NCBI GenBank assembly: GCA_028280715.1
Contig: JANQLG010000012.1
Span: 62,211 to 126,210 of the forward strand
DNA: 64,000 nt
Source: Spongiibacteraceae bacterium
Lineage (GTDB): Bacteria > Pseudomonadota > Gammaproteobacteria > Pseudomonadales > Dasaniaceae
Direction: 5' to 3'
The notes beneath the pieces were generated by a model. It worked only from the letters and a program-made list of their open reading frames with translations. It ran no database searches and was not told where the DNA came from. Positions within the stretch are counted from its first letter, which is position 1, and every line of letters begins with the position of its first letter. This document shows positions 707 to 50,192 of this stretch, piece after piece. The position numbers were made by a program, and so were the translations under genes.

Positions 707-877
707 CCGAGAAACTGCCATTCATTTAAAACACTTTGGGCTTTGAAATAGCGCGCACTTCTGCCAAAAAATAATGGCAGCTATGTCACAGCTACCTATA
801 CTTGATATAAAAGGTGGGATTTTATCTTGTAATCTATAATACACAGGCATTTAGCCCTATTGGGCACAAGAATTAAT

Positions 878-1861
878 ATGCAATCACCTAGCACTCCAGA
901 CAATGAGGCTCATCGCCTGGCCACTCTCAAATCCCTGAATATTTTAGATACTGAAGCAGAAGAACGCTTTGATCGTATTACGCGCATGGCGAGAAAATTG
1001 TTTCAGGTACCTATTGCGCTGGTAAGCCTGGTTGACGAAAACCGACAATGGTTTAAATCCTGTTTTGGTATTGATGCCACAGAAACACCGCGCGACATCT
1101 CATTTTGTGGACATGCCATATTAGGCAACGAAGTGTTTAACATACCCGATGCCTCGCAAGATACACGTTTTGCCGATAATCCATTAGTTACCGGTGCACC
1201 CAATGTTCGCTTTTACGCAGGCAGGCCATTAAAAGCGCCCAATGGAGACAAAATTGGTACACTCTGTATTATCGACCAGGAACCCAGAAACCTGGACGAT
1301 GAGGATCTGATAATACTTGACGACCTGGCCGCAATGGTCGAGCAAGAATTGTCTGCCGTGCAACAAGCATCGATCGATGAGCTTACCCAAATCAGTAACC
1401 GCAGGGGTTTTCATCAAATAGCCGAGCACAGCTTGCAGGTCTGCAAGCGTCAAAATATTCCTGCCTGCCTGGCATTTTTTGATCTAGATAGCTTTAAACC
1501 AATCAATGATCAATTCGGCCATAAAGAAGGCGATAATGCGCTGCGCTTTTTCGCTGAACAATTACAGCTGGCTTTTAGAGAAACTGATTTAGTAGCGCGT
1601 ATAGGTGGCGATGAATTTACAGTTTTTTTTATCAACACGTCGACAGACTTGGCAAATGCTTTTGTTGAACGATTCACTTCCCAACTGGAAGAGGCCACAC
1701 AAACAGACAAACGTCCCTATAAAATCTCTTTCTCCTATGGTTTGGTTGATTACGATAGCAAGCGTCACCATTCGATTAACGAGTTAATGATCGCCGCCGA
1801 TAAAATTATGTATCAACACAAACAGGAAAAAAATCAGCGAAAACACCTTTCATCGCTTTGA
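878..1861 (+). CDS. GAF-domain diguanylate cyclase (GGDEF)
   Basis: N-terminal half is GAF-like. C-terminal half carries RIGGDEFTVFF (GGDEF active site). ATG at 878 is preferred to the TTG at 860 used by the ORF track. Confidence 0.85.
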   Translation: MQSPSTPDNEAHRLATLKSLNILDTEAEERFDRITRMARKLFQVPIALVSLVDENRQWFKSCFGIDATETPRDISFCGHAILGNEVFNIPDASQDTRFADNPLVTGAPNVRFYAGRPLKAPNGDKIGTLCIIDQEPRNLDDEDLIILDDLAAMVEQELSAVQQASIDELTQISNRRGFHQIAEHSLQVCKRQNIPACLAFFDLDSFKPINDQFGHKEGDNALRFFAEQLQLAFRETDLVARIGGDEFTVFFINTSTDLANAFVERFTSQLEEATQTDKRPYKISFSYGLVDYDSKRHHSINELMIAADKIMYQHKQEKNQRKHLSSL

Positions 1862-1964
1862 ATATATAGTTATTTCATCACCTACTGCTAAACCCTTTTC
1901 ATTCTAAAGTTCATCCAACTCGCCTCCTATACTTAACAAGAAGACCAGCGAAGGAGGTATCACC

Positions 1965-2726
1965 ATGAGCACAATTACTCAACACACTCCCTCTTATCCT
2001 ATTCGTACTGTTCCCATGACTCGCCCTTTTGTTTGGTTAGCACGGGGATGGGAGGATTTAATGCATCACTTCCAGGCCAGCTTTACTTATGGCGCAATGG
2101 TAACCTTTATGGGAGCTTTAATTCTCGCCTACGAACGGCACCCACTGTTCATCGCCGCAGCCATGAGCTGCTTTATGATGGTGGCACCGATTTTAGCTGC
2201 AGGTTTAACAGAACTATCCCGCTGCAGCGATCTCAACGAAGAAGCCAATTTTGATAGTTCGTTAAAAGCCCTGCGACGCAACCACGACAACTTATTGAGC
2301 TTTGCCGGTTTTCTACTGGTAATCAGTGTTATCTGGTTTGCTGCTTCCTACTGGCTGATGGCCGCTATTATTGGTGAAGTAACACCGACCATTGCGCAAA
2401 CTGTTTGGGGCGATGTACTCCACAATATGACTGGCACTCAACTTACTGCCTATGCCATTTCCGGTGGTTTATTAATTGGCTTGGTGTTTGCGCTTTCAGT
2501 AGTCACGGTACCCATGATTATTGATCATCATGTCGATGCGCGCTCTGCTATGAAAACCAGTTTGCGGGTATTCGTTAAAGATCTACCTGCCATCGCCATG
2601 TGGGGCGTGATCATCCTTGCACTGATCGCCATTGCCTTTGCATCGTATCTGATCGGCATGTTGATTATTTTTCCGCTACTGGGGCATGCGACCTGGTATG
2701 CCTATCAGGATTTGGTAAAACACTAA
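1965..2726 (+). CDS. Integral membrane protein (DUF2189-like)
   Basis: 253-aa ORF with several hydrophobic helices and a GGAGG-like RBS upstream. The family assignment is from memory only. Confidence 0.45.
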   Translation: MSTITQHTPSYPIRTVPMTRPFVWLARGWEDLMHHFQASFTYGAMVTFMGALILAYERHPLFIAAAMSCFMMVAPILAAGLTELSRCSDLNEEANFDSSLKALRRNHDNLLSFAGFLLVISVIWFAASYWLMAAIIGEVTPTIAQTVWGDVLHNMTGTQLTAYAISGGLLIGLVFALSVVTVPMIIDHHVDARSAMKTSLRVFVKDLPAIAMWGVIILALIAIAFASYLIGMLIIFPLLGHATWYAYQDLVKH

Positions 2727-2749
2727 TCTATCGGTAGTAGATAATCTGT

Positions 2750-3271
2750 TTACTCAGCAGGCTGATCTTCCAGCTTGGTGGTTTCACGGGTATCCATGAT
2801 CGCTGCGATTTTCCAGCCCTGATCGGTACGGATGACAAAATAGGCTTCCTTAAAGCTTTGACGTTTTTCAGTACCGATTAGGATACGGACAGAGTGAGTT
2901 TCAATATCGGCCCATATCGTCGCGATATCGCCTTCTACCCGGCTATCGATAATGTTAGCCGTGCGAGTATAGGATCTGGTCATTTTAAAAATAACGGGAA
3001 TGATGCCCGACCAGTACTCTGGTAAATTCTCAGTCAAGCCTTTAGGGTCGACACCCGCATGGGCACTCTTGATCGTAAACTGCACACCACCATCGACCAT
3101 AGTGTTGATCAATCCTTCCTCATCCTCATTGGCAAAGGCGGCATTAAAATCCAGTACGACTTGCTCATGGGGTGCAGCTGCATATGACAATGAAGCCACC
3201 AGTAACCCTGCAATCAAAACTCCAGCCATCAAGCCCCAACTACCTAACAAGCGATGAACATATTTAGTCAT
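2750..3271 (-). CDS. Exported NTF2/SnoaL-like protein of unknown function
   Basis: ORF 2750..3331. The internal ATG at 3271 gives a classical signal peptide (MTKYVHRLLGSWGLMAGVLIAGLLVASLSYAAA). The C-terminal part looks like an alpha+beta barrel. Confidence 0.5.
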   Translation of the reverse strand: MTKYVHRLLGSWGLMAGVLIAGLLVASLSYAAAPHEQVVLDFNAAFANEDEEGLINTMVDGGVQFTIKSAHAGVDPKGLTENLPEYWSGIIPVIFKMTRSYTRTANIIDSRVEGDIATIWADIETHSVRILIGTEKRQSFKEAYFVIRTDQGWKIAAIMDTRETTKLEDQPAE

Positions 3272-3447
3272 TTCTTTGCCCTTTACTCTGCTTATATTCT
3301 CGTGTTTTAAAATGCTAACAGTCTTGCTCACAGGGTTCCAAGAGATTGCCTATAGCAATAGCCAATATCTTGATTTACAACAAATAAAAGCCGTGTAATA
3401 TTTTCGTTCTGTCATTGTTAAACCAATAAATACATAAAGGGCATTTT

Positions 3448-4965
3448 ATGGAAGCCAAACATTCGGCGGGTACACCCTCTGAAACCAATCATCTGGACAA
3501 CAGTAATACTACCCCTCGATATCGTCTGTTAGCTATTATGCTTGGGCCAGCTGTGTGCTTGTTATTGTCCTCTTTACCTGCGCCGGAAGCTCTTTCCATT
3601 GAATCCTGGAAACTCATTGCACTGACGTCCTGGATGGTATTGTGGTGGATGACAGAAGCTGCACCGGTTGCCGTCACCGCTTTATTGCCTATTCCTTTTA
3701 TGCCAATTTTAGGCATCAGTACCCAACCTGCTGTTACAGCCAGTTATGGCCACCCTTTAGTGTTTTTATTTTTAGGCGGTTTTTTAATTGCAGCAGCCAT
3801 GCAGAGATGGGGCCTGCATAAACGAATTGCACTTAGAATTGTCCAGTTAGCAGGCAATAGCAGTCGTGGCATTATCGGTGGTTTTATGGTTTCCACAGCA
3901 TTCCTTTCGATGTGGATTTCCAACACAGCAACATCACTGATGATGTTTACTGTCGGCATTTCCCTAATTGATTTTGTGTCATCAAAAGTTGAAGACCGTG
4001 CTCAAGTGAGAAATTTCGGCATAGCACTTATGTTAGGAATTGCTTACAGCGCCTCTATCGGTGGAGTTGCAACCTTAATCGGAACACCACCGAACACACT
4101 ATTGGCGGCATTTCTATCAGACAATTACAACATCACTATTGATTTCTCTACCTGGATGGCGGTTGGCGTACCGATTATGCTCATTATGCTTCCTATAGTC
4201 TGGATATTGTTATGTCGATGGATTTTTCCGGTCGGTGATTTACATATTGGGGAGGTTTCAGAATTGGTTTCAGGTGAACTGCATGAATTAGGCGCCATGT
4301 CCCGCGGTGAAAAAGTCGTCATGGTGGTGTTTTGTTTGACGGCTGTTGCCTGGATTACACGAAAGTGGCTGGTGGCTATGACAGGCCTAAATATTTCAGA
4401 TACCTCAATTGCGTTAATGGCAGCATGTGCACTGTTTGTTATTCCGGTATCTTTGCAGCGCAATCAATTTACCGTTGAATGGGAGGCAGCGCACAATGTG
4501 CCCTGGGGTATTTTGATTTTATTCGGTGGCGGCCTGGCGCTAGCTGGTGCTTTTAAAAGTACTGGCTTAGCTGCAACAATTGGTGAATATGTTGGCGGGT
4601 TAAATACCCTGGATATCACGATGATTGTTTTAGTGGCAATCGCAGCTATTATTTTTCTGACTGAAGTGACCTCCAACACGGCAACCACTGCAACGTTTCT
4701 ACCAATCTTAGGCGCTGTCTCTGTTGGTTTGGGCTACAGCCCAATGACATTAGCTATTCCTGCCGCATTAGCAGCGTCTATGGCCTTTATGATGCCCGTG
4801 GCCACGCCACCTAACGCCGTTGTATTTTCCTATGAAGAGATGCACATCAGTGACATGATGAAAGCGGGAATTTGGTTAAACCTAATAACTATCAGCTTGA
4901 TCTATTTGGCCATGATCACATTTATCCCCATACTTTTCGATCTCGGCTATAGCAGTATTTTTTAA
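3448..4965 (+). CDS. DASS/SLC13-family sodium-coupled anion (di/tricarboxylate or sulfate) symporter
   Basis: 505-aa polytopic membrane protein. Conserved SNTA and PPN hairpin motifs occur in both halves (WISNTATSLM.., GTPPNTLL; TSNTATTATFLP, ATPPNAVV). Confidence 0.8.
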   Translation: MEAKHSAGTPSETNHLDNSNTTPRYRLLAIMLGPAVCLLLSSLPAPEALSIESWKLIALTSWMVLWWMTEAAPVAVTALLPIPFMPILGISTQPAVTASYGHPLVFLFLGGFLIAAAMQRWGLHKRIALRIVQLAGNSSRGIIGGFMVSTAFLSMWISNTATSLMMFTVGISLIDFVSSKVEDRAQVRNFGIALMLGIAYSASIGGVATLIGTPPNTLLAAFLSDNYNITIDFSTWMAVGVPIMLIMLPIVWILLCRWIFPVGDLHIGEVSELVSGELHELGAMSRGEKVVMVVFCLTAVAWITRKWLVAMTGLNISDTSIALMAACALFVIPVSLQRNQFTVEWEAAHNVPWGILILFGGGLALAGAFKSTGLAATIGEYVGGLNTLDITMIVLVAIAAIIFLTEVTSNTATTATFLPILGAVSVGLGYSPMTLAIPAALAASMAFMMPVATPPNAVVFSYEEMHISDMMKAGIWLNLITISLIYLAMITFIPILFDLGYSSIF

Positions 4966-5029
4966 TCGCACACGTTACTGCTACCAAATCAGTACTGCTA
5001 TATCTGTCGAACTTTTCAATGCGAGCAAT

Positions 5030-7381
5030 TCAGAGCGATTCTTTTACAGATTTTCCGATACGCTCTTTTTGTTCATCGTCCAAACTTAATTCCACAGGTA
5101 ATTCCTCAAGCTCAACATCATTAATCATGTTATTACGATCTGTTGCTTCACTAATCACCTGTTGTGGCGACTGTTCAATGTCCTGCAATAATCTACTGCC
5201 CAGAAGTAAATCTGTGGGTTTGCCCATGTCACCTTTGCTGTAATCACAAACACCTTGGGGGAAAATTTTTTCCAGTATTTGTTGATAAGAAGACATATCA
5301 ATAGAGCCATAAACGCCTTTATCTAGTGCTGTTTTTACGGGCTGCAAATGACATTTGAAAATGTCACCAGCAACATCCGCGCCGGCCAATTGTCTGGAAA
5401 CAGAATAAGAGGGGTAAACATCCATACAGGCCCCTTTTTTCAAATCATTCCATGCACCATTCCAAACATCACTCCCAGCGGCAATAATTTTTCCTTCATT
5501 GTCAAAACAAGTATCAACCGCCTGTTTTGGTTTAGCTTTTTTAGTTAACCACTGATCCAGCACAGCAAAAGCTTCAGGCTCACCGGTATGGGGTTTTCGA
5601 GTCACCCATATCAAATGGTTTTCGCTATGGCCCTGCTCTCGCAACAACCGTTTTCGAGCTGAGAAAGAGGCAGATAAATGATGCATGTCCAATTCATCCT
5701 CTAAATAATGCCGTAAATCAATAAGAGGAATCGGCAAATGGCCTAAAAATACATGACCACTGCGATAAACAGCATGCATTGCTTTTATATGACCCTCACT
5801 GCGCACGGCGGGCTTTTCCAACGTTCCATGCCGCATATTTTTATGACTCCAAATGGAAATTCTGATGGGAAAAACATCGCCATTTAAAAACCAGAAATGT
5901 TCCTTACGTAAATCCTTTTGTGCTTTCCAGCCACCGATACTGGCATTGAGTTTTAAAAATTCATCAATGGTAATTTTATTGTCCAATAATGTTTTCAATC
6001 CGTATTGAACACCAACATTGTCCCAAGTGGTTCGGCCATAACCCTGTTCATCAGTACCATAAATTAATTTCAAATCATTCCAATGCGTCCAGTTAACGGA
6101 TTCCACCACATCCGGATGATAATATTTTGCTTTATGCGTAAACGTCGGGTTATTCACCAGAGCTGTTAAACCGCGCCAACCATTGGCGCACTCGGTCTCA
6201 CCATTTTCCATACTGGGAAAAACACCGCTCCTGATTTGTGATAACCGTTGAAACCAGCGAAAACGGCTGGTGATTTCGGCACTGGCATTCAGTCCTTCGA
6301 TATCACGACGATTCTCCCAATCCTGCCAGCGTGGATTATTTCTGTCAGTGACATCGAAAAAGTATTCCAACAACTCACAGTCCATCGCATAAGCTTTCTG
6401 CGTCACCATGTCTGGATAGGCATATTCGGCAATGGCTGCATCGAGAATATCGGGATTATTTTGCGCAAGGATATATTGTTGTACTGCGCCTCCTGATCCG
6501 CCAATGCCAACGGTATAAAGCGGCTCGCCATAAAGTGCAGTAAATTGTTTCTTAACCCTTAGAGCTACATCTTCCGAAGTCCATAAGTTGTAATGATTGG
6601 ATGTTTGGGTACCAGTGGAATAAATAACGGCATAACCCTGCACGAGTTGTTCATACCTGCGTTTAAAAATAATTCGAGGTGACAAACGTCCTTGTCGGTA
6701 GCCAATACCCACACCGCCGCGAAACTGATAAATTAATTTTTGATTCCAATTACTGCCATTGGGGTTATCTAACGTTTCATTGTCGCCACGTAAAGCGACA
6801 ATCATATAGAGAAAGCGATTTATCGTGCCTATCTCTACTCTAACAACAAAATCAATCTCTTTACCGTTTACCACAATTTTTTCAATATCATCATTCGCCT
6901 GTGATAGAGGATAAAAGCTATCTTCGGTATCAACACGTTTGTAATAGTAATTGGCTTGAGTGGGCAGCAGACAATCTTTACTGTAACCCATAACCTGATC
7001 GGTAACAGTGCCCTGCTTATTCAATTTATAAACAGGCACCCCCCAACCCTGATAATTATCAATCAAGGGTTGCCCAAGCCCGGATCGTCTTATCCCACAC
7101 AGAAAAGGATATTGTGGTTCACCCGCAAACAAAGGCTCAACCGGACCTACTTCACCGATATGTATGGGAAAGGTAAAAGTCTCTTCAGGTCGACTGATAA
7201 CCGAAGGATGTAAACCCTGATAGGAAGGCAGCGATATATCCTTTTCAACCGGAGGCATTCCCACAACATATACGGGAGGAATTGATTTAGAATCAGGATG
7301 TAAATAAAAACCTGCGCAGGATATTAATAACAGCGCAAAAAACATCCAGGCAAAATGCAATTTCTTTTTTACAAGCAACAT
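5030..7381 (-). CDS. Large lipoprotein, probable alpha/beta-hydrolase-fold enzyme
   Basis: 783-aa ORF with a lipobox (LLLISCAG) and a nucleophile-elbow-like GIGGSGGA motif. No family recognised by eye. Confidence 0.4.
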   Translation of the reverse strand: MLLVKKKLHFAWMFFALLLISCAGFYLHPDSKSIPPVYVVGMPPVEKDISLPSYQGLHPSVISRPEETFTFPIHIGEVGPVEPLFAGEPQYPFLCGIRRSGLGQPLIDNYQGWGVPVYKLNKQGTVTDQVMGYSKDCLLPTQANYYYKRVDTEDSFYPLSQANDDIEKIVVNGKEIDFVVRVEIGTINRFLYMIVALRGDNETLDNPNGSNWNQKLIYQFRGGVGIGYRQGRLSPRIIFKRRYEQLVQGYAVIYSTGTQTSNHYNLWTSEDVALRVKKQFTALYGEPLYTVGIGGSGGAVQQYILAQNNPDILDAAIAEYAYPDMVTQKAYAMDCELLEYFFDVTDRNNPRWQDWENRRDIEGLNASAEITSRFRWFQRLSQIRSGVFPSMENGETECANGWRGLTALVNNPTFTHKAKYYHPDVVESVNWTHWNDLKLIYGTDEQGYGRTTWDNVGVQYGLKTLLDNKITIDEFLKLNASIGGWKAQKDLRKEHFWFLNGDVFPIRISIWSHKNMRHGTLEKPAVRSEGHIKAMHAVYRSGHVFLGHLPIPLIDLRHYLEDELDMHHLSASFSARKRLLREQGHSENHLIWVTRKPHTGEPEAFAVLDQWLTKKAKPKQAVDTCFDNEGKIIAAGSDVWNGAWNDLKKGACMDVYPSYSVSRQLAGADVAGDIFKCHLQPVKTALDKGVYGSIDMSSYQQILEKIFPQGVCDYSKGDMGKPTDLLLGSRLLQDIEQSPQQVISEATDRNNMINDVELEELPVELSLDDEQKERIGKSVKESL

Positions 7382-7686
7382 AACAATGTCTCCTCTACAT
7401 CATTACTGTAGACATCACATGCAGCTCTTATTTTTAATAGTGCATATAGTATTTTTAGACTATTTAAAGCAGCGGGCTTGTAGTTAATTGCTATAAGAAC
7501 GGATTTAAAATCTGATCACTCTTAATCCATGACAAGATTTTTATTTAAGTTGGCAGTTATTAACAGGAAAGGCTTTGAATTAAGCAGGATAAAAAAATCA
7601 AATGAAATTTTAAGACTAAATCGAACTAAGTATTAGACAATAAAATTCTAAATCATTTTGTAGCTATTGATGACTATGAGTTATGT

Positions 7687-8322
7687 CTATGAACCGTAGG
7701 CTTTTAGAAAAAAATCAACTGACTGTTCAACTAATTGATCAATTTCAGCCTTTGAAACAGTATCAATACCAATCATCATTTTGGTTTTTTTCACTCCACA
7801 CAACAATGCAATAAATTGTAATGCAGCGAGTTCAGCATCGTCGGCATGGCAATGACCGGCGTCAATTTGTTTTTGTAAGTAACTGATAAAATTTTGTTGA
7901 ATCCAGACGGGGCCAGCTTCCCAAAACATTTGCGACACTTCAGGATGCGCCTGCGAGCCTGCCACACACAAACTTTCCAACCGAATAGCCTGCTCACTAA
8001 ATAGCAACTCGCAGAATTCGCACCCCATTTTGGTTAGGGTTTCTCTTAAGGAAAGACCCGACGGAGAAAGAATTTCAGCTGGAGTATGCTCTCTGCAGGC
8101 GCAATTAATGGCCTCCTTGAACAGGGCTTCTTTACTACCAAAATGGCTATATAGCGTCTGTTTGGATACACCCGCCATTTCAGCAATCTCAACCATACTG
8201 GCATTATCGAAACCGGCATGAAGAAATACATTGGCCGCAGCATCCACAATAGCCTGACGACGCTGCTCCTGCTGTTCAGCTCTGGTGGATTTCATAGTAT
8301 TTATTGACGCCGCTTTACTCAC
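7687..8322 (-). CDS. TetR/AcrR-family transcriptional regulator
   Basis: N-terminal HTH (FDNASMVEIAEMAGVSKQTLYSHFGSKEALF). It is divergent from the RND pump genes. Confidence 0.85.
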   Translation of the reverse strand: MSKAASINTMKSTRAEQQEQRRQAIVDAAANVFLHAGFDNASMVEIAEMAGVSKQTLYSHFGSKEALFKEAINCACREHTPAEILSPSGLSLRETLTKMGCEFCELLFSEQAIRLESLCVAGSQAHPEVSQMFWEAGPVWIQQNFISYLQKQIDAGHCHADDAELAALQFIALLCGVKKTKMMIGIDTVSKAEIDQLVEQSVDFFLKAYGS

Positions 8323-8442
8323 TAACTTTGCTCGCTATAAGTGCCTGAATGTAAAGAATTAATGCTCACTCTCTGTTATTGAACAGATGATGTGCACTTT
8401 TGAAGAGCCCTATAGGCTTGATCGCCCAGTGTATATTCATTA

Positions 8443-27772: not shown

Positions 27773-28336
27773 TTAAGCAGCAAGCCAACATCTTTGCCCA
27801 CTAAAACGGGCTTTTAAGTATTCCATCTGATCACCACGAATCTGGCGATTATCCAGATACATAAATTCAAAAATATTCGGCGCAAAAGGAATGGCTAATA
27901 ATTCCATACCTGCTTGTTCTGGAGTACGACCACCTTTATGGTGATTGCACCGTTCACATGCAGCGACAACATTGGTCCAACAATCCTTACCACCTTGTAC
28001 ACGTGGCACAATGTGATCACGCGTTAACTGCCTGTTATCGAATTCCATTCCACAATACATACAACGTTGACCATCACGCCGAAACAACATCCTGTTAGTT
28101 AGCAGTGGTTCGAAGTTTTGTTTTCCAACATCACCACTGCAGGCAATGATCGGAGCTAGTTGCAAACTTGACTGCAAGCCTTCGCGGTTTACTCCACCAA
28201 AGATCCATAATGACTCAGAACCAAGACTCCAAATCACTTGCTCTTTTACATACATAGTGGCCGCTTCTTGACGGGTTACCCAAGCTTGAGGAACCCCTGA
28301 CTTATTCAATTTCAAAATGCGAGTTTGCTCTTTCAT
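27773..28336 (-). CDS. HNH endonuclease
   Basis: CMYCG...TRDHIVPRVQGGKDCWTNVVAACERCNHHKG (HNH/zinc-finger core). AGGTAGGAG RBS. It sits between tRNA genes. Confidence 0.8.
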   Translation of the reverse strand: MKEQTRILKLNKSGVPQAWVTRQEAATMYVKEQVIWSLGSESLWIFGGVNREGLQSSLQLAPIIACSGDVGKQNFEPLLTNRMLFRRDGQRCMYCGMEFDNRQLTRDHIVPRVQGGKDCWTNVVAACERCNHHKGGRTPEQAGMELLAIPFAPNIFEFMYLDNRQIRGDQMEYLKARFSGQRCWLAA

Positions 28337-28413
28337 ACTCCTACCTCTACTTCATCACTTTCACTCTCACAAATAAAGATGCACTTCCCCTGTGCGACTT
28401 ATCATCCGTAAGC

Positions 28414-28492
28414 TGGTACCCAAGGTGAGAGTCGAACTCACAAAATCAACAGATTCTAAATCTGCACGCTTTGCCAATTTGCGTACCTGGGT
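28414..28492 (-). tRNA. tRNA with UAG anticodon (Leu-decoding) but no long variable arm; non-canonical
   Basis: Acceptor ACCCAGG/CUUGGGU (one G.U), D arm CGCA-AAUUGGCAA-AGCG, anticodon arm GCAGA-UUUAGAA-UCUGU, 7-nt variable region UGAUUUU, T arm GUGAG-UUCGACU-CUCAC, A73, encoded CCA. Confidence 0.6.
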
Positions 28493-28539
28493 AAATTTTG
28501 TGTGCACACATCCCTTGTGCTTGTCTTTCATCCTTAAAC

Positions 28540-28614
28540 TGGTTGGGGCAATGGGAATCGAACCCACCTCCGCCGGATTAAAAGTCCGGTGCACAACCGC
28601 TATGCCATACCCCA
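28540..28614 (-). tRNA. tRNA-Lys (UUU)
   Basis: Acceptor UGGGGUA/UGCCCCA, D arm GCAU-AGCGGUU-GUGC, anticodon arm CCGGA-CUUUUAA-UCCGG, variable CGGAG, T arm GUGGG-UUCGAUU-CCCAU, A73, encoded CCA. 75 nt. Confidence 0.85.
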
Positions 28615-28630
28615 TCTTTCGAAAATAAAT

Positions 28631-28708
28631 TGGTCAGAGTGGTAGGACTCGAACCTACGACCCCCTCCATCCAAAGGAGGTGCGCTAACCAGACTGCGCT
28701 ACACTCTG
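28631..28708 (-). tRNA. tRNA-Pro (UGG)
   Basis: Acceptor CAGAGUG/CACUCUG (C1-G72), D arm GCGC-AGUCUGGUUA-GCGC, anticodon arm CCUCC-UUUGGAU-GGAGG, variable GGGUC, T arm GUAGG-UUCGAGU-CCUAC, A73, encoded CCA. 78 nt. Confidence 0.9.
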
Positions 28709-28723
28709 AAAATCTTTTTACTA

Positions 28724-28798
28724 TGGAGTGCGCAACTGGAATCGAACCAGTGAAAACGGAAGTTGCAGTTCCGCGCATTACCTCTCTGCCACACGCAC
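28724..28798 (-). tRNA. tRNA-Cys (GCA)
   Basis: Acceptor GUGCGUG/UGCGCAC (two wobble pairs), D arm GCAG-AGAGGUA-AUGC, anticodon arm CGGAA-CUGCAAC-UUCCG, variable UUUUC, T arm ACUGG-UUCGAUU-CCAGU, U73, encoded CCA. 75 nt. Confidence 0.85.
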
Positions 28799-28817
28799 TT
28801 TTTGCTCATTGTAAAAG

Positions 28818-28891
28818 TGGCTACGGTGTCCGGACTCGAACCGGAATCCTCGGAGTCAAAGTCCAATGCGTTACCATTTCGCCACACCGCA
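28818..28891 (-). tRNA. tRNA-Gln (UUG)
   Basis: Acceptor UGCGGUG/CACCGUA (U1-A72), D arm GCGA-AAUGGUA-ACGC, anticodon arm UUGGA-CUUUGAC-UCCGA, variable GGAU, T arm UCCGG-UUCGAGU-CCGGA, G73, encoded CCA. 74 nt. Confidence 0.85.
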
Positions 28892-28898
28892 AAAAATT

Positions 28899-28972
28899 TG
28901 GGGTGATGCCGGGAATTGAACCCTGGTCTCCTGGTCCACAGCCAGGCGCTCTACCACTGAGCTAACATCACC
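28899..28972 (-). tRNA. tRNA-His (GUG), one nucleotide short on the 3' side
   Basis: 5' GGUGAUGU-UA, D arm GCUC-AGUGGUA-GAGC, anticodon arm CCUGG-CUGUGGA-CCAGG, T arm CAGGG-UUCAAUU-CCCGG (A.G mismatch), 3' CAUCACC-CCA. The 5' side has the extra G typical of bacterial tRNA-His. Only 15 nt rather than 16 follow the T loop. Confidence 0.65.
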
Positions 28973-28978
28973 ACAATT

Positions 28979-29064
28979 TGGTGGGGAGGGAGTCGAACCC
29001 CCAAAGCTTTCGCGACGCGTTTACAGCGCGCTAGAGTTGCCACATCTCTTCTGTGCCTCCCCGC
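28979..29064 (-). tRNA. tRNA-Tyr(GUA)-like gene with aberrant acceptor/T-arm geometry (non-canonical or pseudo-tRNA)
   Basis: D arm AGAG-AUGUGGCAA-CUCU, anticodon arm GCGCG-CUGUAAA-CGCGU, 12-nt variable region containing GC-GAAA-GC, GGGGG-UUCGACU-CCCUC, end ...CCCCACCA. GGGGAGG can pair with CCUCCCC, but that uses nucleotides needed for the T stem. The gene is 4 nt short on the 3' side and has 4 nt extra on the 5' side. Confidence 0.4.
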
Positions 29065-29068
29065 TATT

Positions 29069-29143
29069 TGGCTGGCCTGGTAGGGGTCGAACCTACGATT
29101 CTCCGGTTAACAGCCGGACGCTTTACCACTCAGCTACAGACCA
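29069..29143 (-). tRNA. tRNA-Asn (GUU)
   Basis: Acceptor UGGUCUG/CAGGCCA (U1-A72, one U.G), D arm GCUG-AGUGGUA-AAGC, anticodon arm UCCGG-CUGUUAA-CCGGA, variable GAAUC, T arm GUAGG-UUCGACC-CCUAC, G73, encoded CCA. 75 nt. Confidence 0.85.
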
Positions 29144-29235
29144 ACAATTTTTAAGCGACCACATTGTTAAAAAACAGCTACCGTGTTGGCGGGTAGCGCA
29201 CCATGTCATTCAAAAAAATTCTACCGTAAAAAAAC

Positions 29236-29270
29236 AAAACCCCGGCTGGGTTCACCAACCGGGGTTTTTG
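29236..29270. terminator. Bidirectional rho-independent terminator between rtcA and the tRNA array
   Basis: AAAACCCCGGCTGG-GTTCA-CCAACCGGGGTTTTT, with an A-run before and a T-run after. Confidence 0.7.
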
Positions 29271-29510
29271 ATTACAAACTCCACTCCGGTTGGCACTAGC
29301 CTCCCGGAATTTCCAAAAGACTAGATTTTCGTTTTTTCACCTACAGACATCACTAGGTGACTTACATTTTTATTAGGCAGACTTTGCCCCTGCTTGCGAC
29401 ACTGCAAACATAAAAACCTTTCATTTATTGACAAATCTTTTGTCGTTTTCCTAAATAAATGGCATATCAAATTAACGATTACCTCTACGCAAAAATTTAC
29501 AGACATAAAA

Positions 29511-29549
29511 AAACCCGATAGATATTTTTCAAAAATACCTACCGGGTTT
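29511..29549. terminator. Long imperfect hairpin flanked by A/T runs (terminator-like) downstream of rtcA
   Basis: AAACCCGATAGATATTTTT-C-AAAAATACCTACCGGGTTT: 19-nt arms with 2 mismatches. Confidence 0.45.
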
Positions 29550-29859
29550 TAAACTTGTTTAAAGCTATTCAACCTGGAAGGCATAAGTGCCTTCCAAAAA
29601 GAAAGACACTGCTACCGATTATTCTCCACATGCGTGAGTGGGTTAATAACCATACGAATGCTATAACAGCACTGCATTAGGTTTTGTTGACCAAAAAATT
29701 TACTCATTACTTTTACTATTCGTTTTGCTTTATTTAAATCTTAATGAAAAATTAAAAAATTATTTCCATCAATTTAGTTGCAGCAATAATAGTATTCAAA
29801 ATTTCAAAGTCAACAAATTATTTATGAAAATATATACTTTATTAAAAAATTTATATTTT

Positions 29860-30885
29860 CTAAACACAAACCTCCCATACACCTTTTTCAATTTCACTCA
29901 ATTGAATATCAATATTCATTAACTGACTTATAATACTAATGTTAGTTAACAGGTGTTGACTTGGTTTTAGCGTTCGAAAAATACCACCCACACCCAATAC
30001 CATTGGCAACAACAACTGATCTGCCAGATATTCTCCTACACTAACATCAACTTTAAGGTAGCGTTTTACTTCTCGAATCGCCTTTTTTGCCACTCGCTCA
30101 GCACTAACACCATGCTCACCTACAACTTCTACCACTTCACTGACGTTTTCACTACACAAACGCAGTGAGAGAATATTGCCAGGACCTTGAGAACGTACAA
30201 GCTGTTGCTTAAGTGTCGACGCTGGCCACAACCCAATACGCCTAACTTGATCAAGTTCTCGTTCAGTAATATGCTCTGGTAAACACGCCGAAGTCGCAAC
30301 GGCTAAACGTGAAACTTCACGGCCACGTTCAACCAAATTTAGCCTTGTGGTTTTCTGCACTGGATAAATTCTTACACGCCAGGCACCACCGCCAGCAGGA
30401 TAAAAACCATAACGTTGTAACTCGACATCAGCCCGATAGCCCATTTGTGCAATAGCTGGCAAAAAACACTCAGCAATAAAATCAAAGCTAGGCGCAAATC
30501 CGTTATGTGTGCCACCTTCGAGATAAATTTCACTCACCTCTTTAGCGAATAACAGTGGCATATATACTGTTTGGAAAACCAAACTGGTACTGCCAGCTGA
30601 ACCCACTGAGAATCGGTATTCTCCAGCTTTAATCATCCCTGGCCTAAAAGTAACTTCCCTAGAACCCAATTCATCACCGGTTATTTCTGCATCGCAAATC
30701 ATTTGCGCAGCTCGTAGGCAAGTTAAGTGCTGCCGCAGCAAACCAGGCTTGGAACGACCTGCACGAATATTTTGTATTCGCACCGATTTTCCTAAACACA
30801 TTGCCAGGGTCAATGACGTTCGAAATATCTGTCCGCCACCCTCTCCTAATGAACCATCTATTACAATCACACTATTTTTCCTCAT
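29860..30885 (-). CDS. rtcA: RNA 3'-terminal phosphate cyclase
   Basis: Close to E. coli RtcA (IDGSLGEGGGQIFRTSL, RAGRSKPGLLRQHL, FYPAGGG, EYLADQLLLPM). The ATG at 30885 matches the E. coli N-terminus. The ORF-track extension to 30936 runs into the tRNA-like element. Confidence 0.9.
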   Translation of the reverse strand: MRKNSVIVIDGSLGEGGGQIFRTSLTLAMCLGKSVRIQNIRAGRSKPGLLRQHLTCLRAAQMICDAEITGDELGSREVTFRPGMIKAGEYRFSVGSAGSTSLVFQTVYMPLLFAKEVSEIYLEGGTHNGFAPSFDFIAECFLPAIAQMGYRADVELQRYGFYPAGGGAWRVRIYPVQKTTRLNLVERGREVSRLAVATSACLPEHITERELDQVRRIGLWPASTLKQQLVRSQGPGNILSLRLCSENVSEVVEVVGEHGVSAERVAKKAIREVKRYLKVDVSVGEYLADQLLLPMVLGVGGIFRTLKPSQHLLTNISIISQLMNIDIQLSEIEKGVWEVCV

Positions 30886-30892
30886 GTTTATT

Positions 30893-31049
30893 TGGTGGAC
30901 GTGACGGGATTCGAACCCGCGTATAACAACAACCAAGGCATTACTCTTGGTCAGTCATAGACTTGGAAACGCGCGCCAGCTGACACCCGCATTAGAGCAT
31001 CGAGCCTGCATCCTCAACCGTACATCTATCACTGATTACGTTGCCACCA
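30893..31049 (-). ncRNA. CCA-terminated tRNA-like element between rtcB and rtcA (Y-RNA/YrlA-like candidate or degenerate tRNA)
   Basis: Minus strand ends GCGGG-UUCGAAU-CCCGU-CACGUCC-A-CCA, 7 nt before the rtcA ATG. The 3' ACGU-CCACCA can pair with UGGUGG-CA-ACGU at 31038..31049. An internal hairpin ACCAAG-AGUAAUGC-CUUGGU is present. No standard cloverleaf could be closed by eye. Confidence 0.4.
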
Positions 31050-31177: not shown

Positions 31178-32404
31178 TTACCCTTTTACACACACCACTT
31201 GTTTTAAGGTGTACACGATTTCCACTAAATCCTGTTGCGCCTCCATCACTTTATCGATGGGCTTGTACGCAGCCGGTGTTTCATCAATCACACCTTTGTC
31301 TTTTCGGCACTCAACATCCGCTGTTGCCTGAAGGTGCTCTTCCAAAGACACCATTTTTTTTGCTTTAGTGCGCGACATCACGCGACCTGCACCATGGCTA
31401 CAACTACAGAAGCTTTCTTCGTTGCCAAGTCCGCGAACAATGTAAGACCGAGCTCCCATGCTTCCGGGGATAATACCCATTTCACCTTCGCGAGCGCGTA
31501 CCGCACCTTTGCGTGTAACCAACACATCTTTTCCATAGTGGTGCTCGCGAGACACATAATTATGATGACAGTTCACCGCTTCCATCCGCGCCTCAAAGAT
31601 CATCCCTAATTCTTCGGTAACCGCTGCGATAACACGAGCCATCATTACTTCTCGGTTAATACGTGCAAAATTTTGTGCCCATTCCACCGCTTCGACATAC
31701 TCATCAAAATGTTCAGTACCTTCTGGCAAGTAAGACAGGTCACTATCAGGCAAATGAATATGCCAACGCTCCATATCTTTCTTAGCCACTTCAATAAAGT
31801 GCGTACCAATGCAGTTACCAACACCACGTGAGCCGCTATGCAACATAAACCATACTCGACCATACTCATCCAAACACACTTCGATAAAGTGGTTGCCAGT
31901 ACCTAAAGTACCCAGATGGTTAATGTTGTTGGTATTTTTCAATACCGGATGTTTATCTACTAACACATCAAATTGTGCTGACAGCGGCATCCAGGCTTTC
32001 ATCACATCATCAGGGACATTACACCACGCACCTTTATCCCGCTTACCGCGCAAACGCCTTGAACGACCATGCGGTACTGCTTTTTCAATCGCATCACGAA
32101 TACCGGCCAAGCTATCAGGCAACTGCTCCGCGGTCAGGCTGGTTCGCACCGCCATCATCCCGCAGCCGATATCTACTCCAACGGCTGCAGGAATCACCGC
32201 ACCTAATGTAGGAACGACGCTGCCAATTGTTGCACCCTTGCCAAGGTGGACATCCGGCATTGCCGCCACCCATTGATGAATAAAGGGCATTCGCGAAATA
32301 TTCTTTAATTGCTCTTTAGCATCTTCTTCAAAAGGAACGCCTCGGGTCCAAGTTTTGATAGGTACACCACCGTCTTGCATTACTTCATAGCGCTCTTGAG
32401 TCAT
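31178..32404 (-). CDS. rtcB: RtcB-family RNA ligase (copy 2, RtcR-controlled)
   Basis: 408 aa with strong similarity to E. coli RtcB. It is divergent from rtcR and has a sigma54 promoter upstream. Confidence 0.92.
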   Translation of the reverse strand: MTQERYEVMQDGGVPIKTWTRGVPFEEDAKEQLKNISRMPFIHQWVAAMPDVHLGKGATIGSVVPTLGAVIPAAVGVDIGCGMMAVRTSLTAEQLPDSLAGIRDAIEKAVPHGRSRRLRGKRDKGAWCNVPDDVMKAWMPLSAQFDVLVDKHPVLKNTNNINHLGTLGTGNHFIEVCLDEYGRVWFMLHSGSRGVGNCIGTHFIEVAKKDMERWHIHLPDSDLSYLPEGTEHFDEYVEAVEWAQNFARINREVMMARVIAAVTEELGMIFEARMEAVNCHHNYVSREHHYGKDVLVTRKGAVRAREGEMGIIPGSMGARSYIVRGLGNEESFCSCSHGAGRVMSRTKAKKMVSLEEHLQATADVECRKDKGVIDETPAAYKPIDKVMEAQQDLVEIVYTLKQVVCVKG

Positions 32405-32470: not shown

Positions 32471-32486
32471 TGCGAAGGCAGTGCCA
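32471..32486 (-). promoter_or_regulatory. Sigma54 (-24/-12) promoter of rtcB
   Basis: The minus strand reads TGGCAC-TGCCT-TCGCA, with GG and GC at consensus spacing, 67 nt upstream of the rtcB ATG. Confidence 0.75.
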
Positions 32487-32631: not shown

Positions 32632-34224
32632 ATGAAAACCGTAGCGATCAGCATTCTAGGTACCACTATGGACCGTCGTGGTAAGGGCGAAAAACGCTGG
32701 GACAAATGGCGCCCCACCATTTCCATGTGCCAACACGATGACCTATTGATTGATCGTCTGGAACTGCTATTCGACAACCACTCGCAGAGCCTGGCTGAGC
32801 AAGTCAAAGAGGATATCGCCCGCGTCTCTCCAGAAACCGAAGTGATTTATCACCACGTCAACTTTCATGACCCCTGGGATTTTGAAACGGTCTATGGCGA
32901 ATTGCTCGACTTTGCACGAGGCTATTCTTTTAAACCAAGTAAAGAGCGCTACCTAACACACATCACAACCGGCACCCACGTTGCTCAAATCTGCTTGTAT
33001 CTGTTGACCGAAGCTGGCTACCTGCCAGGCCAATTAATCCAAACATCCCCGGCACCTAGAAACAGTAATGTAGCAGGCCAATATCAAATTATTGATCTGG
33101 ACTTATCCAAGTACGATCAAATTGCGTCGCGCTTTAAAAAGGAGCACTTTGAAGGCACCACTTACTTAAAGGGAGGAATAAAAACCAATAACAAAGCCTT
33201 TAACCAAATGATCGAGCAATTGGAGCAGGTATCGATTCGCTCAAGTGAGCCGATTCTTTTAACTGGCCCCACCGGCGCCGGCAAATCACAACTGGCCCAA
33301 CGGATTTATTCACTAAAAAAACAGCGCGGCCTAATCAGCGGTAATTTGGTCGTCGTCAACTGTGCGACCTTAAAAGGTGAGAATGCCATGTCTGCGTTAT
33401 TTGGCCATAAGAAAGGCGCCTTTACCGGTGCAACAACCGATAGAGCAGGCCTGCTTCGCGAAGCCGATGGCGGCATGTTATTTCTGGATGAAATTGGAGA
33501 ACTTGGTACGGACGAGCAAGCCATGCTGCTACGCGCAATAGAAGATAAAAAATTTATGCCATTCGGCGCTGACAAAGAAACCACCAGCAATTTCTTATTA
33601 ATCGCTGGTACTAATCGCGATTTGAGCGGTCAAGCTCAACGGGGAGAATTCCGCGAGGATTTACACGCCCGCATTGATTTGTGGACCTATCGACTACCTT
33701 CACTTTCAGAAAGGATGGAGGACTTCGAACCAAATCTCGATTATGAACTGGAGAATTACTCCACCAAAACCGGTTATCTCATCAGCTTTAACAAAGATGC
33801 CAGAAAAAAATACCTGCAGTTCGCAACATCGACAGAAGCCACATGGTCAGCCAATTTTCGGGACCTCAATGCCAGCATTACACGCATGGCAACCCTGGCC
33901 AATGGCGGTAGGATTACTGTAAGCGTCGTTAATGAAGAAATTGACCGACTGCAACACAAGTGGCAATCGACAAGCAATAAAAGCCACACCAATGACACAA
34001 CATTACTCAAATCCATTCTCGGTGAAAACAAGATTAAGTCACTGGACTTATACGAGCAGATGACACTAGCACCGGTATTAAAAATTTGTCAAAGCGCCAA
34101 CTCTATGGCCGAAGCAGGAAGAATCCTCTTCAATGTGAGCCGGGAGCAGAAAAAATCCAATAACGACTCACATCGGATAAAACAGATCCTGGATAAACAC
34201 CAGATTAAGTTTGGCGACCTATGA
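32632..34224 (+). CDS. rtcR: RtcR, CARF-domain sigma54-dependent transcriptional activator
   Basis: 530 aa. It has an N-terminal CARF-like region, an AAA+ sigma54-interaction core (LLTGPTGAGKSQLA, GAFTGA, LFLDEIGEL) and a C-terminal HTH. It is divergent from rtcB as in E. coli. Confidence 0.9.
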   Translation: MKTVAISILGTTMDRRGKGEKRWDKWRPTISMCQHDDLLIDRLELLFDNHSQSLAEQVKEDIARVSPETEVIYHHVNFHDPWDFETVYGELLDFARGYSFKPSKERYLTHITTGTHVAQICLYLLTEAGYLPGQLIQTSPAPRNSNVAGQYQIIDLDLSKYDQIASRFKKEHFEGTTYLKGGIKTNNKAFNQMIEQLEQVSIRSSEPILLTGPTGAGKSQLAQRIYSLKKQRGLISGNLVVVNCATLKGENAMSALFGHKKGAFTGATTDRAGLLREADGGMLFLDEIGELGTDEQAMLLRAIEDKKFMPFGADKETTSNFLLIAGTNRDLSGQAQRGEFREDLHARIDLWTYRLPSLSERMEDFEPNLDYELENYSTKTGYLISFNKDARKKYLQFATSTEATWSANFRDLNASITRMATLANGGRITVSVVNEEIDRLQHKWQSTSNKSHTNDTTLLKSILGENKIKSLDLYEQMTLAPVLKICQSANSMAEAGRILFNVSREQKKSNNDSHRIKQILDKHQIKFGDL

Positions 34225-50069: not shown

Positions 50070-50120
50070 GACCATTCATTAAAAAAGCCACCCGATGGGT
50101 GGCTTTTTTAATGAATGGTC
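50070..50120. terminator. 51-bp perfect palindrome (24-bp arms) acting as tRNA-Pro terminator and overlapping the tRNA 3' end
   Basis: GACCATTCATTAAAAAAGCCACCC-GAT-GGGTGGCTTTTTTAATGAATGGTC. The right arm includes the tRNA 3' GACCA (50116..50120). Confidence 0.7.
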
Positions 50121-50192
50121 GGGACGGCAGGATTTGAACCTACGACCACCACACCCCCAGTGTGGTGCGCTACCAGACTGCGCTACGCCCCG
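50116..50192 (-). tRNA. tRNA-Pro (GGG)
   Basis: Acceptor CGGGGCG/CGUCCCG, D arm GCGC-AGUCUGGUA-GCGC, anticodon arm CCACA-CUGGGGG-UGUGG, T arm GUAGG-UUCAAAU-CCUGC, A73, CCA. 77 nt. Confidence 0.9.

Follow-up and report, generated by a model that had tools for sequence, protein, structure and literature searches.

A tRNA array with affinities to L-arrays embedded in an RtcR/sigma-54-type RNA-repair operon of a Spongiibacteraceae bacterium

Introduction

Sets of transfer RNA (tRNA) genes carried by phages offset the depletion of tRNAs by host nucleases. In jumbo phages, tRNA genes occur together with genes for RtcB, RlaP and CCA-adding enzymes (Iyer et al. 2021, PMC7824862). RlaP adds nucleotides to the 5' halves of cut tRNAs ahead of ligation (PMC12776372). 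In Anabaena, an L-array is silent until translation is impaired, whereupon 23 of its 26 tRNAs are made, charged and found on polysomes; this array aids survival and is co-regulated with rtcB, an HNH gene and a slipin gene (PMC8421152, PMC10272220). In Salmonella, tRNA 5' halves with cyclic-phosphate ends switch on RtcR (PMC7790460), and an HNH gene is the most widespread gene linked to the tRNA array units of mycobacteria (Morgado and Vicente 2018, PMC5966550). Here we describe a tRNA array on the minus strand (28414-29143) of a 64-kb stretch of DNA, called the window throughout, from a Spongiibacteraceae bacterium (GenBank assembly GCA_028280715.1, contig JANQLG010000012.1, positions 62,211 to 126,210). 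This array lies within an RtcR/sigma-54 operon of RNA-repair genes, and the reading that we favor is that of a spare-tRNA cassette of the L-array type captured by that operon.

Arrays linked to HNH genes, cyanobacterial arrays co-regulated with or adjacent to rtcB, and phage tRNA genes accompanied by repair enzymes are already known. The new element is the embedding of an array in an RtcR/sigma-54 rtcBA operon: we found no report of tRNA genes within rtcBA/RtcR operons in the literature searched, which did not include the survey of Burroughs and Aravind 2016. The substrates of bacterial RtcB and RtcA are a standing question, and here the genome sets presumed clients beside the enzymes.

Compared with the L-array of Nostoc PCC 7120 (the trn operon; Santamaria-Gomez et al. 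2021, PMC8421152), the window array adjoins an HNH gene of the same family and shares a non-periodic order with mixed isotypes, pseudogenes, a short-armed Leu tRNA, the D arm of tRNA-Lys, a sporadic distribution and a functional tie to rtcB and a slipin/SPFH gene. It differs in being chromosomal with 8 to 9 genes, whereas L-arrays have 20 to 43 and that of Nostoc is on a plasmid. It also lies inside an RtcR/sigma-54 operon (in Anabaena, by contrast, the repressor TrcR controls the array in trans; PMC10272220), and its content is pared to a few isotypes with an Asn and Lys core, apparently gated by a conserved terminator.

The Salmonella rsr-yrlBA-rtcBA operon (PMC7790460) likewise has a divergent RtcR, a sigma-54 promoter, RtcB and RtcA. 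It holds tRNA-like Y RNAs, whereas the window operon holds genuine tRNA genes with no Rsr/Ro60 or Y RNA detected and adds an HNH endonuclease, an SPFH protein, a CCA enzyme, two RlaP proteins and a second RtcB. The jumbo-phage toolkit (PMC7824862) has tRNA genes, RtcB, RlaP and a CCA-adding enzyme in common with the window; here, in contrast, the set is encoded by a cell under a stress-sensing activator and has no adjacent phage genes, and it would therefore presumably serve defense against incoming toxins rather than phage counter-defense. Mycobacterial arrays (Actinobacteria), some of which include RF-1-domain or ribosome-rescue genes, are much longer, are located on plasmids or phages and have no reported RtcR control; an RtcB and RF-1-domain pair lies beside one of the related operons described below (L081).

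Results

The array is embedded in an RtcR/sigma-54 repair operon

The array sits in a co-oriented operon of about 12 kb, divergent from RtcR, in the order rtcB1, rtcA, terminator hairpins, array, HNH, X (a tRNA-shaped element), SPFH, CCA enzyme, RlaP, RlaP, a 314-amino-acid protein and rtcB2 (Table 1). This is the layout of an RtcR-regulated rtcBA operon: RtcR is divergent from rtcB and rtcA, and a -24/-12 promoter is present. The position of that promoter, TGGCAC-N5-TCGCA, fits an RtcR-dependent promoter, a function that it presumably has. An earlier note, made by a model from the letters of this DNA, had tied the array to the nearby repair enzymes; the link is real and stronger than was claimed, the array being embedded in the operon itself.

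Within the operon and immediately around it, neither an integrase nor phage structural genes were found; the GC content of the locus is unremarkable. The genes downstream of rtcB2 are unrelated to the operon (MarR, DCC1-like and others), and the flanks are cellular. No Rsr/Ro60 (TROVE) protein was found among the open reading frames (ORFs) of the operon. A search for a Y RNA at the locus gave a best YrlA match of 20 bits against a gathering score of 69, spanning two neighboring genes. PADLOC and NCBIfam provided no system-level name for the HNH, the 314-amino-acid protein or the RlaP copies.

Seven intact tRNAs and one decayed member form the array

Nine tRNA genes were called in the window by ARAGORN, and the same nine passed the Rfam tRNA gathering score. 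Seven of them constitute the array (Rfam 50-68 bits, E values 1e-7 to 1e-12). The earlier note had described eight genes; seven are intact tRNAs at the place that it gave, while its Tyr-like member, which ARAGORN did not call at default settings, is a decayed pseudogene. It had also overlooked the tRNA-shaped gene X. With eight genes and one more past HNH, the array is long for Gammaproteobacteria and short for L-arrays, which reach 43. No match to E. coli genomes came up when the array region was searched by megablast.

On reading the sequence, the reported spacers of 4, 6, 7, 19, 15, 16 and 47 nucleotides (nt) are correct, as is the genomic CCA on every member. The encoded CCA is not a special feature, however: it is the norm in Gammaproteobacteria, and the chromosomal tRNA-Pro(GGG) of the window (50116-50192) has it as well. 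The identity elements also hold, namely U1-A72 with G73 in Asn and Gln, U73 in Cys, C1-G72 in Pro, and G-1 with C73 in His. Only three array members (Asn, Gln and Lys) have U1-A72 rather than the four that had been counted, the fourth such tRNA lying outside the array range. The proposed sharing of D and T arms between the array Pro and the chromosomal Pro(GGG) stood in part: the D arm agrees but is generic for tRNA-Pro, and the T arms match only partly.

tRNA-His lacks one nucleotide at the junction of T-stem and acceptor, where there is either an A.G mismatch or a shared G. Porticoccus W117 (L085 9134-9207) has this short junction too, with covariation in the acceptor stem. Two direct copies of a 16-nt repeat (88% identical) occur at 28402-28417 and 28528-28543, 3' of both the Lys and the UAG tRNA. 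The two copies flank the UAG gene at a spacing of 126 nt, exactly one tRNA-plus-spacer unit, which suggests that this gene was a modular gain by duplication or insertion.

Composition and anticodon loops

Two wobble classes were considered, Q34 (Asn, His, Tyr and Asp) and xm5s2U34 (Lys, Gln and Glu), seven species in all. tRNAs of these classes are targets of colicin E5-type, PrrC-type and zymocin-type nucleases. They make up five of the eight array members (P ~0.0015) or four of the seven intact ones (P ~0.011) in a post hoc hypergeometric test. On these post hoc counts, the enrichment for anticodon-nuclease targets proposed earlier is suggestive only; the conserved core of the cassettes consists of Asn and Lys.

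The anticodon loops of Asn and Lys are canonical, and those of His, Gln and Cys differ at positions 32 and 38. The nuclease resistance suggested earlier is not supported for Asn and Lys with their canonical loops, and it would be conceivable for His, Gln, Cys, Pro and Leu. At position 37, the m1G37 site, canonical Pro and Leu(CUN) tRNAs carry G, whereas the array Pro(UGG) and Leu(UAG) carry A. The chromosomal Pro(GGG) of the window has G37, and the Pro copies of the related cassettes L099 and L081 have A37. A37 may affect reading-frame maintenance or nuclease recognition.

A conserved slot with changing content

Eighty genome loci (L001-L080) were fetched around homologs of the HNH gene, and loci around HNH were scored by a tblastn presence matrix; a measure of ORF gaps around HNH was dropped as too noisy. 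A metagenome scan with the HNH protein alone found no relative, and a scan by DNA words did find relatives. The resulting census of cassettes comprises seven operons, several on short metagenomic contigs.

In these seven operons, which belong to the subclade nearest the window, the operon recurs as a whole and tRNAs fill the same slot from rtcA to HNH. The seven cassettes have seven different contents, and sister cassettes hold 3 to 7 genes (Table 1). The cassette is thus a conserved slot with fast-changing content around an Asn and Lys core. Two RtcR-RtcB-RtcA-HNH operons (L003 and L103) lack any tRNA. No tRNA lies within 10 kb of HNH at 78 of the 80 genome loci, and an array at none; the two exceptions are a single X-type tRNA (L004) and a distant Lys at a contig end (L064). 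With the array missing at all 80 HNH genome loci and in two Rtc and HNH operons, the distribution is sporadic, not vertical. The genes flanking the operon differ between the window and L085.

The core members are well conserved. Over six cassettes, Asn has a mean column identity of 95%, and Lys reaches 97% over seven. Both values include the anticodon loops, which are kept with the one exception of C33 in the Asn of L099. Neighboring proteins at the same loci are less conserved (63-87% identical; RtcA 63-65%, HNH 72-76%). Stem changes are often compensatory: in Asn, a T-stem pair changes from U-A to C-G and pair 4-69 occurs as U.G, C-G and U-A; in Lys, anticodon-stem pairs change from A-U to C-G and from C-G to U-A; and relative to L085, Gln has two compensatory double changes in the T-stem and His a change from A4-U69 to G4-C69 in the acceptor. 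This conservation and covariation indicate that the intact members act as folded tRNAs with defined anticodons, and Asn and Lys are under strong purifying selection.

Erosion is equally visible. A chimera in L081 (9456-9533) joins the Asn 5' acceptor strand (TGGCCTG) to the body and 3' strand of Pro(UGG), so that pairing in the acceptor stem is disrupted; its 3' end reads CCG. It is a deletion or recombination scar that shows how cassettes lose genes. The UAG tRNA of L085 (8949-9133) has about 70-75 nt inserted in the T-loop, with its exons otherwise intact, and L099 has interrupted genes at 4410-4622, 4699-4808, 4883-5008 and 5163-5432. The insertions in L099 and L085 are structured, 25-170 nt long, and located in the D-loop, anticodon loop or T-arm. 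tRNA-Cys, which is also found in L102, is among the interrupted genes of L099.

Two of the L099 insertions carry a common REP-like palindromic module (CGCC-loop-GGCG(G)CCCGAAGGG). A further motif, GAGAUGUGGC, was seen in the 5' half of the Tyr-like element of the window and in the His-Gln gap of L102, and in shortened form (GAGAUGUG) in the Cys insertion of L099.

The HNH family links the cassette to L-arrays, plasmids and viruses

For the HNH protein, 606 homologs were detected, most of them from marine Gammaproteobacteria, with 46-76% identity, and about 60 residues are invariant among 19 sequences. The family occurs in at least 591 species-level genomes, mostly as a lone gene in unrelated neighborhoods. 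Since nearly all of the fetched HNH loci stand alone without Rtc genes or tRNAs nearby, HNH does not simply travel with tRNA arrays, and judged from these genomes so wide, lone and conserved an occurrence seems unusual for a supposed homing endonuclease. Its AlphaFold model is poor overall (pLDDT 59.6), with a confidently modeled N-terminal beta-rich domain. Foldseek against the PDB returned only the generic HNH core (Cas9, IscB and Gme HNH), with no match below E 1e-3.

In tblastn searches of plasmids, HNH matched the HNH beside the array of 24-26 tRNA genes on plasmid delta (pCC7120delta) of Nostoc/Anabaena PCC 7120 (34% identity, 80% of the query, E 2e-15). At 43%, it matched HNH genes directly after plasmid arrays of 19 genes in Polaromonas and 27 in Methylibium; further plasmid matches were found in Variovorax, Burkholderia, Mycobacterium and Rhodococcus. 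tRNA-Lys is 79% identical to the Nostoc array Lys, compared with 65% to that of E. coli and 69% to a chromosomal Lys of Competibacteraceae, and its unusual D arm, GGCAUAGCGG..GUGCA, is common to the window and the Nostoc array Lys. For Pro(UGG), identity is highest with the Polaromonas array copy (80%), against 73% for E. coli proM. In the UAG tRNA, a Leu-type D-loop, A73 and an ACCC...GGGU acceptor go together with a short variable loop, an architecture also found in four Nostoc array Leu tRNAs of 75-78 nt, whereas E. coli leuW has a long arm. Asn, His, Gln and Cys had no clear affinity to L-array copies, and the phylogenetic signal of tRNAs is weak. The nearest sequence affinities thus appear to be with plasmid L-arrays.

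All nine full-length HNH relatives in viral contigs lie inside tRNA arrays, four of them with a transfer-messenger RNA (tmRNA) beside the array. In the nearest, L106 (IMGVR_UViG_3300020383_000006, 145 kb), HNH is 58% identical to that of the window. Its array (192-8442) has 22 tRNAs, which are 57-74% identical to those of the window, with Leu(UAG) directly before HNH and an RtcB inside that is 52-56% identical to the window RtcBs. L106 also has a 3'-5' exoribonuclease-like gene, and L107, L108, L122 and L124 are other large viral contigs with HNH-family tRNA arrays.

A comparison with phage and plasmid tRNA clusters, proposed in the earlier note, found the array in no record, with generic single-tRNA matches of about 75-80%. 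blastn against 50,697 phage records likewise gave generic single-tRNA matches only (75-80%), and 22-24-mers of the array-type Lys and Asn had no viral match. The suggested phage derivation therefore survives at the level of the module family, through the HNH relatives in viral arrays, and fails at the locus, which is not flanked by phage genes and has no tRNA above about 80% identity to a phage or plasmid tRNA. From these relationships we conclude that the cassette probably belongs to a lineage of HNH-linked arrays that moves between phages, plasmids and chromosomes, domesticated here in a repair operon.

X is a conserved tRNA-shaped element

The body of X is elongator-Met-like, 81% identical to E. 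coli metT and metU. Over seven genomes, 98% of the cells of its cloverleaf are paired, with 5 compensatory pairs, compared with 31-40% in slid controls. Its anticodon loops in these genomes are CUCAUAA, CUCAUAA, CUAUUAA, CUAAUAA, CAGAAG, GAGUUAA and AAGGUAA (six states), giving the anticodons CAU, CAU, AUU, AAU, a 6-nt loop, GUU and GGU. Two to three of the seven copies lack U33, and the 3' end is usually ACC-G with no encoded CCA, followed by a conserved hairpin. SPFH comes after HNH-X in L004, L081-L084, L085, L099, L100 and L102, and in L004 the HNH-X-SPFH trio is present without Rtc genes. X is a conserved tRNA-shaped RNA free of the constraint to decode one codon; possible roles are those of a processing signal, a mimic or a bait.

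The Tyr-like element is a decayed pseudogene

ARAGORN with its default settings did not call the element between Asn and His, and neither did Rfam, even when a 171-nt slice was searched at E<=10. The element retains a good anticodon arm (CUGUAAA), a T arm and a terminal ACCA, but the 3' strands of its T-stem and acceptor overlap by 4 nt, and 15 nt rather than 9 precede the D-stem. Real tRNA-Tyr genes align with its anticodon arm, T arm and 3' strand but not with its 5' half, and shuffled sequence folds just as well (z = -0.52). It is missing from L102, the most similar cassette, where the Asn-His spacer is 22 nt. We read it as a decayed tRNA-Tyr pseudogene. Matches to Y RNA, tmRNA and sX4 were rejected, being far below gathering scores and spanning neighboring genes, as was a weak low-threshold ARAGORN call of tRNA-Pyl (CUA).

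A conserved leader and terminator precede the array

A leader of about 100 nt is present in the window, L085, L099, L100, L101 and L003; for L081, the comparison covered only the part that begins with the terminator. In L003, the Rtc and HNH operon without tRNAs, it precedes HNH. RNAalifold gave 22 pairs, 5 of them with compensatory changes. The leader could be a small RNA or a conditional terminator. A weak, sub-threshold resemblance to attenuator-type leaders (His_leader and rnk leader) was also seen.

In four cassettes, the U-run is at most 15 nt from tRNA-Asn. This leaves no room for a promoter, so that transcription of the array must start upstream and pass the terminator. The start could lie at the predicted sigma-54 promoter or at a sigma-70-like site in the spacer between rtcA and the array, and the arrangement of leader and terminator looks like a gate on array transcription. 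No sigma-54-type promoter was found directly upstream of the array, the only nearby match (27688-27703) lacking the -12 GC and such matches being as frequent as expected by chance.

The sigma-70-like promoter, TTGACT-16-TATTAT, lies just after rtcA (29786-29813, minus strand), and a 61-amino-acid ORF (29321-29506) overlaps the region of this promoter and the second, 19-base-pair (bp) hairpin. The hairpin and promoter suggest a small putative separate transcription unit between rtcA and the array.

Discussion

We consider it probable, by a little, that the array is a spare-tRNA cassette of the L-array type that was captured by a chromosomal RtcR/sigma-54 repair operon and that would give fresh copies of frequently attacked tRNAs. 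Ribotoxins or stress would cut tRNAs, and the resulting fragments with 2',3'-cyclic phosphates would activate RtcR, as extrapolated from Salmonella. Transcription from the sigma-54 promoter would then supply RtcB and RtcA, and read-through past the conserved terminator would release a burst of new tRNAs, mainly Q34/xm5s2U34 species (Asn, His, Gln and Lys) together with Cys, Pro and Leu(UAG). The same transcript would run on into HNH, SPFH, the CCA-repair enzyme, RlaP and the second RtcB, with replacement and repair of tRNAs deployed together. The locus suggests, but does not prove, a pairing of tRNA replacement with tRNA repair as in large phages and some cyanobacteria. For the array we infer co-transcription with the operon, inducibility, aminoacylation, use in translation and a benefit under tRNA attack.

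Several observations weigh against this interpretation. The strong conserved terminator and the second hairpin before the array mean that coupling to RtcR needs read-through or an upstream promoter. The frequent pseudogenes, chimeras and insertions indicate that much of the cassette is dispensable, and A37 in Pro and Leu, together with the short arm of Leu, might impair function. Nearly every tRNA is the target of some toxin, and the enrichment test was post hoc. Finally, the Anabaena array is dispensable for the recovery of protein synthesis.

If the interpretation holds, a fast-evolving, Asn/Lys-centered set of tRNAs, rich in wobble-modified species that colicin E5-type and PrrC-type nucleases cut, shares a stress-controlled operon with two RtcB ligases, the RtcA cyclase, the CCA-repair enzyme and two nucleotidyltransferases that heal RNA ends. 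Three separate threads would be joined, namely the induction of the cyanobacterial L-array with rtcB, the tRNA and repair genes of jumbo phages, and the sensing of tRNA halves by RtcR. They would point to one recurring replace-and-repair module moving between phages, plasmids and chromosomes, and the variable content of the cassettes may record the ribotoxins that each lineage meets.

The same turnover of content could be read as the mark of a selfish passenger. Array and HNH would then form a mobile homing cassette in the rtc operon without host benefit, maintained by homing or gene conversion and shuffled by HNH-induced recombination; homing by the L-array HNH has been proposed (PMC8421152). 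Plasmids, phages and mycobacteria have tRNA arrays with HNH relatives alongside, and the fast turnover, the Asn::Pro chimera, the interrupted genes and the unit-length repeat at the UAG gene are what such a cassette would leave behind. We regard this as unlikely, although worth serious consideration, since a family that is 46-76% identical over at least 591 genomes, mostly as a lone gene, is unlike a typical homing endonuclease. The strong purifying selection on Asn and Lys with their intact anticodons and the retention of the insertion site and surrounding gene order across seven operons also argue against it. There is only a slight chance that the array is the remnant of a recent phage or prophage, the leftover of an integrated phage tRNA cluster. 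The operon and its immediate flanks carry no integrase or structural gene and the GC content is unremarkable; phage records gave only generic matches at 75-80%, and the array-type Lys and Asn words had no viral match. In favor of this reading, the HNH family occurs inside the tRNA arrays of nine large viral contigs, and one of these, L106, also has RtcB and the Leu(UAG)-HNH order; against it, the L106 tRNAs are only 57-74% identical to those of the window.

A use of these RNAs as decoys or sentinels is quite unlikely in our estimation. By this account the array tRNAs, X or both are made to be cut and not for translation, soaking up ribotoxins or feeding back positively on RtcR, which binds tRNA 5' halves with cyclic-phosphate ends (PMC7790460). 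A sponge role has been proposed for the tRNAs of the Anabaena operon, the array is biased to classic nuclease targets, and X holds its tRNA shape as its anticodon drifts, often without U33 and CCA. The array tRNAs, however, retain aminoacylation identity elements and an encoded CCA that a decoy does not need, and a sensor located downstream of the promoter that it induces, behind a terminator, cannot start the response. A narrower proposal, which we hold to be doubtful, takes X for a non-decoding tRNA mimic (a bait or sensor for ribotoxins, or a processing or assembly handle) and has the interrupted tRNAs matured by a nuclease and RtcB. Cleavage of X or the state of its 3' end could then report ribotoxin attack to the repair system. 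If this were true, the interrupted tRNAs of the sister cassettes L085 and L099 would amount to protein-dependent tRNA splicing in bacteria, which is the more speculative part. As for an ordinary housekeeping tRNA operon lying by chance beside repair genes, multi-tRNA operons are common in Gammaproteobacteria and the identity elements and CCA ends are intact, but close relatives vary in content and some have no array, a pseudogene is present, and the U1-A72 Lys with its L-array-like D arm, the short-armed Leu and the A37 Pro are atypical; we consider it extremely improbable. That the array provides the sole housekeeping copies, the outcome that the earlier note had set against its own proposal, is likewise very unlikely on comparative grounds, since contents vary, some relatives are without an array, members decay and several are atypical.

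Further features of the locus

The coordinates of the features, with the contents of the related cassettes, are collected in Table 1.

Table 1. Features of the window and of related loci (positions are those of the window unless a locus is named).
Feature	Position	Strand	Evidence and remarks
RtcR, sigma-54 activator with CARF-type sensor domain	32632-34224	+	Pfam RtcR 7e-85, Sigma54_activat 1e-46
Putative sigma-54 promoter TGGCAC-N5-TCGCA (-24/-12)	32471-32486	-	Pattern search, one mismatch; ~65 nt upstream of rtcB1
RtcB1 RNA ligase	31178-32404	-	Pfam RtcB 1.6e-133
RtcA RNA 3'-phosphate cyclase	29860-30936	-	Pfam RTC 4e-76 and RTC_insert
Terminator-like hairpin, 19 bp and U-run	29510-29550	-	rtcA-array spacer; seen in the window
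Conserved leader: hairpin (CCGGGAGGC..GCCAACCGG), then 14-bp intrinsic terminator and U-run	29229-29326	-	Directly upstream of tRNA-Asn
tRNA-Asn(GUU)	29069-29143	-	U1-A72, G73, CCA; core member; ARAGORN and Rfam
Decayed tRNA-Tyr(GUA)-like pseudogene	28979-29064	-	Not called by ARAGORN or Rfam
tRNA-His(GUG)	28899-28972	-	G-1, C73, CCA; ARAGORN and Rfam
tRNA-Gln(UUG)	28818-28891	-	U1-A72, G73, CCA; ARAGORN and Rfam
tRNA-Cys(GCA)	28724-28798	-	U73, CCA; ARAGORN and Rfam
tRNA-Pro(UGG)	28631-28708	-	C1-G72, A73, CCA, A37 not G37; ARAGORN and Rfam
tRNA-Lys(UUU)	28540-28614	-	U1-A72, A73, CCA; core member; ARAGORN and Rfam
UAG-anticodon tRNA	28414-28492	-	Leu-type D loop, A73, CCA, short variable loop (type I); ARAGORN and Rfam
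HNH endonuclease, tRNA-array-associated family	27773-28336	-	Pfam HNH_5 and HNH
X, tRNA-shaped gene (CAU), ends ACCG	27571-27646	-	ARAGORN and Rfam; conserved hairpin follows
SPFH/Band-7 (slipin-like) protein	26061-27206	-	Pfam Band_7 2e-30
Multifunctional CCA addition/repair enzyme with HD domain	24766-26019	-	NCBIfam NF008137 621 bits (cutoff 451); Pfam PolyA_pol and HD
RlaP nucleotidyltransferase, first copy	23834-24739	-	Pfam PF10127 1.5e-16
RlaP nucleotidyltransferase, second copy	23070-23837	-	Pfam PF10127 2.7e-66
314-amino-acid protein without family	21757-22701	-	No Pfam, NCBIfam or PADLOC match; precedes rtcB2
RtcB2, second RNA ligase	20351-21562	-	Pfam RtcB 5e-130; last gene of the operon
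X copies in related loci	L085 10219-10293; L081 10703-10778; L099 6117-6192; L100 2520-2594; L004 10675-10749; L102 3305-3378
Cassette of L081-L084			Type-II-like remnant, Glu, chimeric Asn::Pro, Lys, Thr, Arg(ACG)
Cassette of L085 (Porticoccus sp. W117)			Asn, interrupted UAG tRNA, His, Gln, Lys
Cassette of L099			Asn, Gly, Gln, Pro, Lys and interrupted His, CAU, Cys, Thr genes
Cassette of L100			Asn, Lys, Arg
Cassette of L101			Asn, Lys, Met
Cassette of L102			Asn, His, Gln, Cys, Pro, Lys

The 314-amino-acid protein has a 38%-identical homolog in L081, which adjoins the pair of genes for RtcB and the RF-1-domain (PrfH-like) protein. There, the pair with this homolog (1092-4206) is located on the other side of RtcR.

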